In this document: one piece after another, positions 22,324 to 51,365 of the stretch
How the letters are laid out: the number at the start of each line of letters is the position of its first letter
Position numbering within the stretch: position 1 is the stretch's first letter
Source of the DNA: Candidatus Latescibacterota bacterium
GTDB lineage: Bacteria; Latescibacterota; UBA2968; UBA8231
Reading direction: 5' to 3'
Assembly: GCA_965242865.1 (NCBI GenBank)
Contig: CBDETK010000013.1
Coordinates: 4,576,001 to 4,640,000 of the forward strand
Length of the DNA: 64,000 bases
Position numbers and translations under genes: made by a program
Notes under the pieces: model-generated
The model's input: only the letters and a program-made list of their open reading frames with translations
Database searches by the model: none
What the model was told of the DNA's origin: nothing

Positions 22324-23229
22324 ATGCAGCACAAAGGACTATGGGGTGGAGTGGTACTCTTGGCCGCGCTATGGGTATCGGCCAGTGGAGCGGCTACTTC
22401 TTCCCTCAAGGCGACCATTATCGATCGCTACGGAAACCAGCACCAAGTCAATCAGTTCACCTTTCAAGGGCGTCAGGATTTGGAAATTTACATCCAAGGC
22501 CAGCGTCGGCTGGTGGAACTGGTCAGGGTTGCTAGGTTGCGCTTTGAAGGGGAGCGCAGCGACGAGGAGCAGCGCGTCGTGCTCGTCTTTCGGACCGGCG
22601 GCCAAGAAGTGGGCTTGATGGTGACGGGCAGCTCTTCTTCGCCGCACCAAGACGCCGTTGGCGGCGGGAGCAGCGGGCGTCGCTTCGCTGGGGTGACGGA
22701 GCTAGGGCCGTTCTTTATTCTCGCCAGCGATGTGCAAGAGATTGTCTTGCGCCATCCCATCGGCGAGGAGCCACCGGCGGAAACTATCCTCAAGGCCACG
22801 GTCATCACGCTAAACGGCCGGCGCTTTGAGGTGGAAAACTTGCGCTTTCACGGCAAGCAGCGGCTCGACTTTTTCAAGGGCCGCAACAAACGCTTTATTC
22901 CGCTAGACAAAGTGGCGCGAATCGACTTTGAGGACGGCGGGATGGGCGACGAGTTTAGGCCGATAACGGCGACCTATTGGTCGGGAAAAACCGTTATGGG
23001 CACGGTCGAGGCGAGCCTCGTCCGCCTTTCGGGCGAGACGGACAAGAGCTATTTCGAGCGCGTCAACCAAGCCTTTACGGGAACCATAGGGTCGAGCCCG
23101 TTTGCGATTGGTATGCACGACATAAAGCATATTCGCTTTCGGCAAGATGAGGACGAAGAAAGCGAAGAAGGCGATGCTGACGCCCCTGCCGGCGAGAGCA
23201 CCGGCGACGGTGCTGGAGACGCTCAATAA
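22324..23229 (+). CDS. Hypothetical exported protein with an internal domain duplication and acidic tail
   Basis: Signal peptide; two similar halves, each starting LKAT. Confidence 0.7.
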   Translation: MQHKGLWGGVVLLAALWVSASGAATSSLKATIIDRYGNQHQVNQFTFQGRQDLEIYIQGQRRLVELVRVARLRFEGERSDEEQRVVLVFRTGGQEVGLMVTGSSSSPHQDAVGGGSSGRRFAGVTELGPFFILASDVQEIVLRHPIGEEPPAETILKATVITLNGRRFEVENLRFHGKQRLDFFKGRNKRFIPLDKVARIDFEDGGMGDEFRPITATYWSGKTVMGTVEASLVRLSGETDKSYFERVNQAFTGTIGSSPFAIGMHDIKHIRFRQDEDEESEEGDADAPAGESTGDGAGDAQ

Positions 23230-23243
23230 GTGCGCCTCGCTTA

Positions 23244-23271
23244 ACTCCCCATAATACCCCTTATCGGGAGT
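23244..23271 (+). repeat. dif/Xer-like 11-6-11 site 1 (left inverted repeat)
   Basis: ACTCCCCATAA TACCCC TTATCGGGAGT: palindromic arms, asymmetric 6-bp spacer. Confidence 0.75.
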
Positions 23272-23307
23272 ATGCCAACGGGCCAGTCGCTGCCAAATAC
23301 AAGATAC

Positions 23308-23336
23308 TTGCAGTACAGGGTAGGATGTTCTATATT
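23308..23336 (+). promoter_or_regulatory. Sigma70-type promoter between the inverted sites
   Basis: TTGCAG-17 nt-TATATT pointing at CDS 23543. Confidence 0.6.
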
Positions 23337-23506
23337 ACGCCCCAATAAAAGCCCTCTAAAGCGGCACCGATAGGTTGGGAAAGGTCGGATGTCGATAATT
23401 ATGGGCTTAATTTTTCTGAGGGGAAGGACCTATGGACGCAATAAGCGGTAGCTCACGCTACGACGCCGGTCGAGCTGAAAAGGTCGCTCTTTCCCAAAAC
23501 CACCAC

Positions 23507-23534
23507 ACTCCCCATAAGGGGTATTAGAAGGAGT
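23507..23534 (-). repeat. dif/Xer-like 11-6-11 site 2 (right inverted repeat, overlaps RBS)
   Basis: Plus strand reads ACTCCCCATAA GGGGTA TTAGAAGGAGT; spacer is the reverse complement of the site 1 spacer. Confidence 0.75.
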
Positions 23535-23542
23535 TTCAGCTT

Positions 23543-24439
23543 ATGAAACGGCTGTATGGCTTTATCGCTATGGGCCTGATAGTGGGCCTGACGAGCGGTG
23601 CTAATGCACATATTGGCGAACAGGTTTACCTGCTCTTTGAAATCGCCGAGGAGGATCTGGCTGACATTGATCTGCGCGATGCCAGCATAGCCGACTGGGA
23701 AGACGTGATTGGTGAGGCTGCGTTGACCACCACTGATTTCTTTCACGATCCGACTGTCGGCGACGGTGCTCAGTACGATCCGGCAGACCTAGACTACCGC
23801 ATCTGGCTGGGCTGGAACGGCAATCTCGGAACTATCTGGATGGGTATGGAGCGCATCGACAATGTGTACATCAACGAGTACGCTGGCGGTGACTTGGGTA
23901 GCTTGTGGAGGCAAGATGCTATTGAGTTCATGCTCGATGGCGACCACACCGGCGGAGATTATACTGGTTCGGCAGACGAGAACTGGACCGACGAAGAGAA
24001 AGACCTGAACAACAACCGCACGGCTCAGCAGTACGTGGCTATCGGCGATACTCCTGACGGCCGCCATGTCGGCTATTTGGGCAAAGGCACCGAGTGGGTC
24101 AACGCGCTGCCCTATGCCGATGGCGGTGGGGGTTCGGTAGGGGACGGACCGACTACTACGATCATTGAGTTTTTCGTCACGCCTTTCGACGATCTGATCT
24201 GGAATAGTCCCGACGACAGCGTCCCGTCGCCTCTCTTCGACGGCAAGATCATTGGGTTCCAGATTTCGGCTCAGGACATGGATACGGGTCCGTCCGAATA
24301 CCGCGCTTTTCACACCTTGTCTGGTCAGGCCGCGACTTGGCGCTATGCCGAGCGCTTTGTCGATGGTCGCTTGGTCGGCGCCGGTGAAACGTCGGTCGAA
24401 GAAGAGTCTTGGGGCCGCATCAAAGCCGCATTTGAGTAG
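23543..24439 (+). CDS. Exported CBM9/DOMON-like protein with WGxxK tail
   Basis: Signal peptide; LGWN, QDAIEFMLDGDHTGG, KIIGFQI; ends SVEEESWGRIKAAFE. Confidence 0.75.
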   Translation: MKRLYGFIAMGLIVGLTSGANAHIGEQVYLLFEIAEEDLADIDLRDASIADWEDVIGEAALTTTDFFHDPTVGDGAQYDPADLDYRIWLGWNGNLGTIWMGMERIDNVYINEYAGGDLGSLWRQDAIEFMLDGDHTGGDYTGSADENWTDEEKDLNNNRTAQQYVAIGDTPDGRHVGYLGKGTEWVNALPYADGGGGSVGDGPTTTIIEFFVTPFDDLIWNSPDDSVPSPLFDGKIIGFQISAQDMDTGPSEYRAFHTLSGQAATWRYAERFVDGRLVGAGETSVEEESWGRIKAAFE

Positions 24440-24462
24440 TAGTAGCGTCCTGCTGTTTTCCT

Positions 24463-24505
24463 AATTTTAAGGAGAGGGGGAATGCTTCCTCCTCTCCTTA
24501 AAATT
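24463..24505 (+). terminator. Strong intergenic stem-loop (terminator or mRNA stabiliser)
   Basis: AATTTTAAGGAGAGG...CCTCTCCTTAAAATT, perfect 15-bp stem. Confidence 0.7.
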
Positions 24506-24613
24506 ATCTTGTGGCTATCGCATAACGTAGATAGCTACCTTCCTCGCGTCATAATACCTCGCTCCTGTTTGCCCATGCTGAGATCCGGGCAAATTCTACC
24601 GGGGAGTAACGGA

Positions 24614-50393: not shown

Positions 50394-51365
50394 TTGAAAG
50401 CCATCAAAACGAATGAGAAGGGGTCGGCTGAGGTGCTGGTCGCGTTTGTTTTTTTAGGGCTGATGCTATGGATGACAGTAGGCTCAGTTAAACCGGCTCT
50501 GGCGCATTATCCCGCAGGAGTGGCCTACAGAGCTTTTCAATTTCCCGACCACTTGGTCCCCGCCATTGACGGAGACTTGAAAGATTGGGAAGTTGTAGGC
50601 GACTCTTACGTCGTATTAACGGATCAGTTTCACGATCTAATTAGTCCAGAAGTTGAGGCGAGTGATTCGGATGATTTTGCTGCTCGTCTCATGGTAGGGT
50701 GGAACAAAGCGGAGAACAGAATTTACATAGCCGCTCAGGTCCGCGATGATATACACCAAATCGATCGTCCCGCTGGCAGTGCTACGATGCTTTTCCAAGA
50801 CGACGCGATGGAATTGTTTATTGACGCGGACCACTCAGGTGGACAATTTGCGAATTTCACCGAGTTGAGCCACGAAGAGCAGAGGCGGCGCAACGGGGCT
50901 GAGGCCAACCATTTCGTTTTGGCTGGCCCGCCGCCCGACGAGGATTTTTTCGTCAACTTTTCCGCCGCCGCTTGGTACGCGCTACCCGATGGCCCCTATT
51001 CCGGCGCGGCGGTCGAGTTTATCGGTGTCTTGGGAGGAGAGGGCGTGACGAATTACGAAGTCATGCTCGTGCCATTTGATCGGGTCGATATCAATGCGGT
51101 CTTTCAAAGCGAAGAGCATATCTTGCAAGAAAATGAAATCCTTGGTTTTAACGTAGAGTTTAACGACTTCGACGTGCATTCAGAGCTTTTTGACGCTAAA
51201 TGGTCGCTTTCGGGCCAACACAATTCTTATCGCTTTTCCGATCGCTTTACCGACTTGATCCTAATGCCACTAGAGGGTACTTTTACGGCTGTGGAGCCGA
51301 GGTCTTGGGGGCGTTTGAAAGCCTCTTTGCACACAGAGCAGTACCATCAAGGAGTTTCTGAATGA
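50394..51365 (+). CDS. Exported CBM9/DOMON-like protein, paralog of 23543, with WGxxK motif (true start possibly 50433)
   Basis: PAIDGDLKDW, VGWN, QDDAMELFIDADHSGG; AVEPRSWGRLKASL. Confidence 0.78.
   Translation: MKAIKTNEKGSAEVLVAFVFLGLMLWMTVGSVKPALAHYPAGVAYRAFQFPDHLVPAIDGDLKDWEVVGDSYVVLTDQFHDLISPEVEASDSDDFAARLMVGWNKAENRIYIAAQVRDDIHQIDRPAGSATMLFQDDAMELFIDADHSGGQFANFTELSHEEQRRRNGAEANHFVLAGPPPDEDFFVNFSAAAWYALPDGPYSGAAVEFIGVLGGEGVTNYEVMLVPFDRVDINAVFQSEEHILQENEILGFNVEFNDFDVHSELFDAKWSLSGQHNSYRFSDRFTDLILMPLEGTFTAVEPRSWGRLKASLHTEQYHQGVSE

Follow-up and report, generated by a model that had tools for sequence, protein, structure and literature searches.

A candidate recombinase-driven invertible promoter cassette between inverted 11-6-11 sites, upstream of a putative secreted-protein gene of a Latescibacterota bacterium

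Invertons served by tyrosine recombinases are known from Escherichia coli (fimS, with FimB and FimE), from Bacteroides (Tsr-type) and from Clostridioides difficile (RecV). Single-recombinase modules, in which the site adjoins the recombinase gene, are represented by xerS/difSL and xerH/difH. IS10 reportedly silences transcripts coming from outside by means of a promoter located between an upstream complement and the ribosome binding site (RBS), as Davis, Simons and Kleckner are said to have described in 1985. Here, we describe a pair of inverted 28-bp sites and the promoter-like sequence between them, located upstream of a gene starting at position 23543 (gene 1) in Candidatus Latescibacterota bacterium. 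The whole stretch of DNA analysed, hereafter the window, is 64,000 nucleotides long (assembly GCA_965242865.1, contig CBDETK010000013.1, forward strand; C13:4576001-4640000 of G000 in our numbering). G000, the organism's own genome, comprises 6.0 Mb and is 93.6% complete. We read the segment between the two sites (23272-23506) as a recombinase-driven invertible promoter cassette, assembled in the ON orientation, and give this reading a probability of about 0.5. The elements of the cassette are as follows:

23244-23271, no strand assigned: site 1, 11-6-11, ACTCCCCATAA-TACCCC-TTATCGGGAGT
23308-23336, plus strand: promoter-like sequence TTGCAG-17-TATATT, between the sites and facing gene 23543
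23343-23542, plus strand: leader (5' untranslated region, UTR) of about 200 nt, conserved, with a predicted conserved fold
23507-23534, no strand assigned: site 2, ACTCCCCATAA-GGGGTA-TTAGAAGGAGT, inverted with respect to site 1
23527-23533, plus strand: GAAGGAG, the Shine-Dalgarno (SD) sequence of gene 23543; it belongs to the outer arm of site 2 and precedes the start codon (ATG at 23543) by 9 nt

The original prediction for this locus, made from the sequence of the window, placed two 28-bp sites at these positions, and its description of the pair is borne out: the coordinates are correct, the two left arms have the same sequence, each spacer is the exact reverse complement of the other, and as an inverted repeat the sites agree at 24 of 28 positions. 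Each site consists of two arms around a 6-bp spacer (read from the sequence), with arms that are palindromic at 10 of 11 positions in site 1 and 8 of 11 in site 2, agreeing with the 11-6-11 layout first proposed; on sequence grounds, the assignment of the pair to tyrosine-recombinase core geometry is supported. In three orthologous loci (L025, L026 and L071), the site 1 arms are palindromic at all 11 positions. The pairing with site 1 is made by the inner (left) arm and spacer of site 2, the outer arm of which is degenerate and bears the SD sequence. In the window, the copy of the pair contains a C.C mismatch. Site 1 begins 14 nt past the stop codon of the upstream gene, a position that is kept in orthologs, and is a full member, with one mismatch, of a genus-wide motif family, ACTNNCGATAA-N6-TTATCNNNAGT.

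The repeat arms (23243-23274 and 23504-23535) are 32 nt long, 84% complementary and 229 nt apart, and form the strongest inverted repeat in a 3-kb scan. Their repeat score is 17, while the maximum in 100 shuffles at the locus is 10. Allowing one mismatch, the shared 11-mer is present five times in the window, against 0.51 expected, with none of 100 shuffles reaching five; the exact 11-mer and a 13-mer core have two copies each in the 6.0-Mb genome, both at sites 1 and 2. The upstream regions of ten other paralogs in the same genome, located with tblastn, have repeat scores of 6-8, with up to 15 in their own shuffles, and contain no comparable pair. A lone family-like site is present at C13:3504170, for which no partner was found. 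The near-match of the motif at C13:4240020 was rejected because it belongs to the 16S rRNA gene, covering its 3' end and the trailer; this trailer (AAGGGGATTATTGGGAGTTTAG, C13:4240000-4240050) is similar to the loop and SD half of site 2.

The promoter-like sequence, TTGCAG at 23308-23313 and TATATT at 23331-23336, is predicted from sequence and faces gene 1 as had been claimed. A consensus scan did not list it, because its -35 box fits TTGACA at three of six positions only. Its ACTTG and TATA.T are invariant in 25 orthologs, as is the AAGGAGT of the SD region, while distant orthologs contain TTGACA-17-TATTAT in the equivalent position. The RBS, GAAGGAG, was likewise correctly placed in the outer arm of site 2. 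On the minus strand, a promoter-like stretch TTGGCA-16-TATTAT (10/12; 23251-23278) overlaps site 1 and a conserved block, ATGCCAACGG, and is aimed into the upstream gene; its -35-like hexamer is TTGACA in several orthologs. Three promoter-like sites of this minus-strand type were found, compared to 0.9 expected (standard deviation 1.0).

The locus resembles known invertons in having a short promoter segment within inverted repeats, beside a gene for a surface or secreted protein, and in that one recombinase could serve several loci in trans, the loci sharing a site family. It differs from them in that no orientation polymorphism is seen here, that the RBS falls within one of the sites, that both sites have a complete 11-6-11 core and a private spacer, and that the candidate enzyme is Xer-like, its gene being situated at the replication terminus next to a canonical dif-like site. 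Similarity to Xer/dif modules consists of the 11-6-11 layout, with ATAA...TTAT around the central region, and of the location of a recombinase-linked family member at the GC-skew terminus (927 kb, with the skew maximum at 920 kb). However, sites 1 and 2 form an inverted pair, are 3.7 Mb away from the terminus and do not contain a conserved XerD-type arm. According to PMC11852207, the shufflon sfx sites of the inversion-only tyrosine recombinase Rci have a conserved core and one conserved arm, with the other arm variable, and this asymmetry has been proposed to limit Rci to inversion. The sites described here are asymmetric in the same manner, but shufflons swap pilV coding segments on plasmids and have a 7-bp core and 12-bp arms, whereas here a non-coding promoter cassette is enclosed by sites with a 6-bp spacer and 11-bp arms. 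Rci-type recombinases have an extra C-terminal domain. Among the papers listed in a literature search, none combines Latescibacter with inverton terms.

The evolution of the pair was followed within the close group, at 27 orthologous loci (L001, L016, L021-L036, L042, L043, L048, L051-L053, L058, L070 and L071). The promoter and the leader of around 200 nt are kept, and face gene 1, in all 26 loci that have them; in L036, the upstream region differs. The pair is intact in 12 of the 27 loci, with 19-20 perfect pairs. For 11 of these 12, RNAduplex gives dG values from -38 to -47 and z-scores from -7.7 to -11.6; L052 was judged by eye. The intact pairs contain four spacer variants: TACCCC/GGGGTA (L001, L021, L025 and L026), TGCCCC/GGGGCA (L032 and L048), TATCCC/GGGATA (L016, L042, L051, L052 and L071) and TTCCCC/GGGGAA (L035). 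Independent variation of the two spacers, an outcome considered in the original prediction, is not observed, the spacers being matched in all 12 intact pairs. Within the intact set, a C/A variant of the inner arm is mirrored in the partner site, without a corresponding change in the outer arms. Joint decay of the two sites is seen in 13 loci (z-scores of -0.4 to -3.2, with one at +0.6), while in L031 site 1 is deleted and site 2 is intact.

In an alignment of 25 rows, 87.7% of the cells of the long-range helix are paired, compared to 42-51% when the partner is slid. Double-sided changes affect four pairs and 14 cells, and one of 500 shuffles attains the covariation score; kinship alone can beat shuffles without any structure, so the covariation supports the pairing and is no proof of it. 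When mapped onto the gene tree, the intact state is scattered, with 5-7 changes. The near-identical genes of L051 and L058 have different upstream regions, which means that upstream regions recombine between lineages and that event counts based on the gene tree are unreliable. Two further loci deserve description. In L052 (genome G019), site 1 is parted from the promoter by two insertions, one of about 1.1 kb (61-1150) that is bounded by terminal inverted repeats (GAGATTATCTC / GAGATAATCTC) and one that is small; the pair is still perfectly matched. In genome G005, a second exact 31-nt copy of site 1, with the spacer TATCCC, is located at L161 842-869 (C1:2789142-2789169), between two minus-strand genes and 0.8 Mb from the gene 1 locus.

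The search of genomes for further sites, which had been suggested at the outset, shows that the family is not confined to this locus. The motif ACTNNCGATAA-N6-TTATCNNNAGT (up to two mismatches) is present in 30 of the 31 genus genomes; the reversed motif, used as a control, is absent from 27 genomes and found once or twice per strand in three. A genome-wide scan of G000 for perfect inverted repeats revealed a 17-bp pair at C13:927174-927345, with its members 172 nt apart, just upstream of a recombinase gene:

C13:927487-928464 of G000: third Xer-like recombinase, PF00589; best solved relative XerD (1a0p), E 6e-17

The first member of this recombinase-linked pair, ACTACCGATAA-CGGGCA-TTATCGGTAGT, has arms that agree at 10 of 11 positions with the common ortholog form of the site 1 arms, and in G022 the arms of the recombinase-linked site are identical to that form. 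The second member is an inverted copy of the left arm and spacer of the first. A promoter-like sequence, TTGACT-16-TATACT, is located inside the pair and faces the recombinase gene, with the family site overlapping its -10 box. In each of the 28 loci read, the third recombinase gene is preceded by a family site at a distance of 110-445 nt, and in most genomes this site is single, without a partner. Its spacer (L130-L157), between the same flanks, is CAGGCA or CAGACA in 20 cases, TGCCTG in five and another sequence in three; a simple two-site inversion does not produce both spacer orientations between the same flanks.

Genome G043 contains four promoter cassettes, each within an inverted family pair and each with a private matched spacer (TAAAAG/CTTTTA twice, CAACAA/TTGTTG and AAATAA/TTATTT). 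When the L163 cassette is compared with those of L164 and L159, relative to the shared right flank, it is on the opposite strand, and the breakpoints are the sites: one sister cassette has flipped historically between paralogous loci. The L163 arrangement is common to six genomes, and the flipped copies are duplicates present in G043 only. The L163-type locus is situated between divergent genes and does not overlap an SD sequence. Its pair co-evolves in the six genomes, with perfect repeats of 21, 15, 18, 20, 20 and 22 nt, and the four differences between the G008 and G005 pairs are all mirrored in the partner. A perfect spacer and inner arm, combined with a degenerate outer arm, are common to the gene 1 locus, the recombinase-linked pair and the G043 cassettes, and judged by its sequence the gene 1 pair is one case of a recurrent promoter cassette between inverted 11-6-11 sites. 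The family also extends to small contigs: C9 and C12 each contain about two tandem copies of a plasmid-like unit of approximately 10.5 kb, without a match to the chromosome, and each unit has one family site, ACGAACGATAA-TAGGAT-TTATCGTTAGT. This unit (in C6, C9 and C12) occurs as tandem dimers, in two variants that are 94-97% identical.

Three PF00589 genes are present in G000: XerD (TIGR02225, 335.9 bits), a XerC-like gene and the divergent third Xer-like gene. No recombinase gene was noticed among the window open reading frames (ORFs) examined, which are a part of all those in the window, and two IS110-type DEDD genes of G000 are located far from it. The third recombinase is found in 29 of the 31 genus genomes, with 76-93% identity, whatever the state of the gene 1 pair. 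A recombinase specific to genomes with an intact pair was considered and rejected, as the PF00589 counts of the 12 intact genomes (3, 3, 5, 4, 4, 4, 3, 4, 3, 3, 4 and 3) overlap those of other genomes. The earlier proposal of a single recombinase acting in trans is plausible, given the family site upstream of the third Xer-like gene, but this enzyme is not specific to intact-pair genomes.

The proposed dif-like identity of the sites does not hold. The cumulative GC skew of C13 has its maximum at 0.92 Mb and its minimum at 3.66 Mb, with sites 1 and 2 at 4.599 Mb. Six canonical dif-like sites, ATAA-N6-TTATGTNAA, are located at C13:900397-946960, within 47 kb around the skew maximum. Each strand carries three of them, and the change of strand occurs close to the third recombinase gene. 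Dif-like sites of the genome also read TTTACATA-N6-TTATAAGACAT. The six may represent an array of integrated Xer-exploiting elements or a multi-site terminus. Sites 1 and 2 lack the XerD-type arm (TTATGTAAAT-like) of these dif-like sites and have only ATAA/TTAT in common with them; they are therefore not dif.

According to the favoured reading, a tyrosine recombinase acting in trans would flip 23272-23506, containing the promoter and leader of gene 1. The best candidate for this enzyme is the third Xer-like recombinase, because a family site always precedes its gene. A recombinase dimer would bind each site, and strand exchange would take place within the 6-bp spacer. The inner arm and spacer would specify the pairing, and a private spacer would prevent recombination with other members of the family. 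If one recombinase serves several inversion loci, it needs private matched spacers of this kind. As the inner arm and spacer form a perfect inverted repeat, both junctions would be unchanged after a flip and the RBS would stay with the gene. In the ON orientation the promoter would drive gene 1, while in the flipped orientation it would aim into the 3' end of the upstream operon. The concerted change of spacer and inner arm would reflect migration of the Holliday junction into the homologous inner arms, in repeated rounds of recombination. Binding by the third recombinase, continued flipping and a frequency at the level of phase variation are what we infer. More tentatively, and in our estimate with the odds against it, such cassettes would exist genus-wide in uncultured Latescibacterota, served by one conserved Xer-like recombinase whose gene is located next to dif at the replication terminus. 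Each cassette would have asymmetric sites with a private spacer that prevents recombination between loci, repeated recombination would homogenise spacer and inner arm, and site 2 would be at once a DNA recombination site and an RNA hairpin controlling translation.

A number of observations weigh against the favoured reading. The comparison of orientation in relatives gave none of the 26 orthologous loci with a promoter in which the cassette is inverted, and all six orthologs of the L163-type locus have one orientation. Contigs of four runs (two of the four probably being the source) show no joints and no strand change over 22900-23900. Of the words sampled from the window, runs X1-X3 contain 100%, and the RNA runs only 5%. 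In runs X1, X2 and X4, one contig extends across both sites in the assembled orientation, and in run X5 both sites are covered by one 2.8-kb piece. Regarding the enzyme, genomes that lack the pair contain the third recombinase too, the PF00589 genes in six of the 12 intact genomes are just the three of G000, and binding of the third recombinase to sites 1 and 2 is deduced from adjacency alone; in addition, a canonical dif-like site, equally near to its gene, is located just downstream of it and is kept in 24 of 28 loci. No serine recombinase (PF00239) was matched in G000, at its 93.6% completeness. Textbook strand exchange over 6 bp does not predict a concerted change of the inner arm, and three positions of the family core TTATC are not matched by TTAGAAGGAGT, the outer arm of site 2. 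L031 and L036 retain site 2 and have no site 1. Finally, the SD/anti-SD pair and a hairpin after the stop codon coincide with the arms, which an RNA-level explanation accounts for without recombination.

Contigs lose rare variants, so that only abundant OFF forms are bounded by these data. Runs X4 and X5 differ from the window at position 23267 of site 1 (G>A), and none of the changes listed for them falls in site 2. A metagenome scan (54 loci) yielded a single close relative (85% identity), with 68 nt of upstream sequence only, and added no orientation data. The small contigs C1-C12 were considered as alternative chromosome arrangements and ruled out, there being one 1.3-kb match only. No cassette locus differs in orientation between species, so that inversion may have died out, or may be infrequent or strongly biased. 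The ON/OFF switch originally proposed is favoured by the matched spacers and the flipped sister cassette, and disfavoured by the lack of an inverted allele in the 26 loci and in the four contig sets.

The uniform orientation, with one each in the 26 loci here and the six at the second cassette locus, would also be expected if the sites were bound by the Xer-like recombinase, or by another dimeric protein, without inversion, leaving the promoter effectively fixed ON. The sites could then be operators (for autoregulation, at the recombinase's own promoter), looping or insulation elements at the present locus, or attachment or resolution sites, with their inverted identity kept by occasional gene conversion. 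The recombinase-linked site is operator-like in overlapping the -10 box of that gene, and is single and partnerless in most genomes; the single site on the plasmid-like unit fits a resolution site, and G005 holds a third exact copy of its site 1 elsewhere. Yet looping or operator function does not need reverse-complement spacers, which are matched in all intact pairs of two loci and in the G043 cassettes, and one cassette has flipped with its breakpoints at the sites. We consider this explanation unlikely. That the pair is a relic, either a decayed mobile promoter cassette or a chance likeness of two hairpins with SD-like arms, is very improbable. The pair is degraded or absent in 15 of the 27 loci, the window copy has its C.C mismatch and a related strain the G>A change at 23267, but matched double changes are present at several positions in two protein clades and at the second locus, and the motif family is specific, with a reversed control near zero.

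At the RNA level, site 2 has a second property. The CC arm variant at gene 1 makes the outer arm an SD sequence and the inner arm its complement, so site 2 doubles as a hairpin; in the models, this is a weak anti-SD/SD hairpin. According to RNAalifold, all 14 leaders analysed retain its outer five pairs (A-CUCC with GGAGU). In predicted minimum-free-energy and centroid folds of 23225-23560, site 1 and site 2 form a helix in which the RBS is buried; the fold of the read-through RNA has an energy of -111.2 kcal/mol and a z-score of -2.69, with none of 100 shuffles as good. In read-through transcripts, site 1, as the 3' hairpin of the upstream operon, might thus pair with site 2 without any inversion of DNA. 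The duplex would span about 28 nt, with 19-20 contiguous pairs, an internal loop and five more pairs, and would bury the RBS or form an RNase III site, so that only transcripts from the internal promoter would be translated; a variant would be a loop-loop kissing contact made in trans by a 3'-UTR fragment. The conserved position of site 1, 14 nt after the stop codon, fits such an arrangement, as do the predicted read-through folds holding the helix between the sites and the anti-SD/SD helix of site 2, which exists without site 1. C-to-U changes in the outer (left) arm of site 1 keep U.G pairs with its right arm in L021, L032, L051, L016 and L035. There is also a parallel in IS200, in which, according to PMC4513863, a terminator hairpin is combined with an SD-sequestering stem-loop.

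The fold-back that protects the transposase genes of IS10 and IS200 against outside transcription (PMC4513863 for IS200) is similar in three features: the promoter is preceded by a hairpin, the start of the gene is in an SD-sequestering structure, and an RBS complement is located upstream of the promoter. However, gene 1 is a chromosomal gene of a symbiont-type genome and does not encode a transposase, the partners are around 235 nt apart, and the same DNA motif recurs where an RNA explanation does not fit: it is found as a DNA site over a -10 box and on a plasmid-like element, and the same architecture is present upstream of the recombinase gene and at the L163-type locus, two places in which no RNA could span both sites and no SD is involved. 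As the L163-type locus is between divergent genes and lacks an SD overlap, the RNA explanation does not transfer to it. In the 12 intact pairs, 19 pairs of the long-range helix are free of G.U, the terminal pair alone being U.G in most, and over the 25 aligned rows G.U is present 48 times (18 of them in one terminal column) and A.C 25 times, so that G.U is not clearly favoured. Pairing of read-through RNA as the sole role of the sites appears distinctly unlikely. None of the papers listed in a literature search contains the phrase "fold-back inhibition".

The genes flanking the cassette, and the hairpin following gene 1, are:

22324-23229, plus strand: upstream gene, 301 amino acids, no Pfam match; its 3' untranslated end carries site 1
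23543-24439, plus strand: gene 1, 298 amino acids, with a signal-peptide-like N-terminus
24462-24506, plus strand: hairpin with a 21-bp stem, directly 3' of gene 1, 95% complementary

The upstream gene is the last in a co-directional run of envelope-biogenesis-type genes. The protein encoded by gene 1 has no match in Pfam or the PDB. Its nearest protein-atlas clusters are CBM9-like, and gene 1 looks like it encodes a secreted CBM9-like protein, an assignment to be taken as a lead only. There are 18 paralog matches in the same genome, and an ortholog is present in all 24 of the other genus genomes first searched. One paralog (about 29-30% identity), at window positions 50442-51326, is equipped with a separate promoter-like sequence of the TTGACA type and lacks an inverted pair of sites. 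The fold predicted for the gene 1 leader contains 46 pairs, six of which show compensatory changes. An Rfam scan of 22500-24200 (E up to 10) returned three chance-level matches, none near the gathering score, and the leader belongs to no described RNA family. Generally, the leaders of the gene 1 family are long and conserved, and contain an SD-like box (GAGGGGAAG at gene 1 and GAAAGGAGGTG in distant orthologs and paralogs, L037-L068 and L073-L112) that precedes the real SD by about 100-130 nt; in distant orthologs, the SD is located in a hairpin loop (TTTGGAAGGAGTCCAAA). The family leader may be an undescribed cis-regulatory leader.

The hairpin after gene 1, AAGAGAGGGGG..CCCCCTCTCTT, is kept in distant orthologs and is probably a terminator or attenuator. 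Several contigs of distant orthologs, 1.1-1.3 kb long, stop at or near it. For the next gene, the start assigned mechanically to the ORF (ATG 24482) is at the hairpin tip, between both arms, and the true start of gene 2 is therefore probably further downstream. Genes downstream of gene 1 show weak matches to C-terminal domains of the type IX secretion system (T9SS) type, and include a peptidyl-prolyl isomerase (PPIase) and a GDSL lipase. The term surface-protein operon, as originally proposed for the 14 kb, is loose: gene 1 looks secreted and CBM9-like, and with a strong conserved hairpin after gene 1 the 14 kb need not be a single transcription unit, and gene 1 may be largely monocistronic.

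If the cassette flips, it would represent a case of phase variation in a candidate phylum for which metagenomes are the only source, with a highly conserved secreted CBM9-like protein under the control of an Xer-family enzyme other than XerC or XerD. The sites would then form a compact natural set of orthogonal inversion sites, with private spacers and one recombinase, and could be useful in the development of recombinase tools. At two loci, spacer and inner arm evolve in concert, a comparative signature that is unusual and could reveal active recombination sites without the need for reads.

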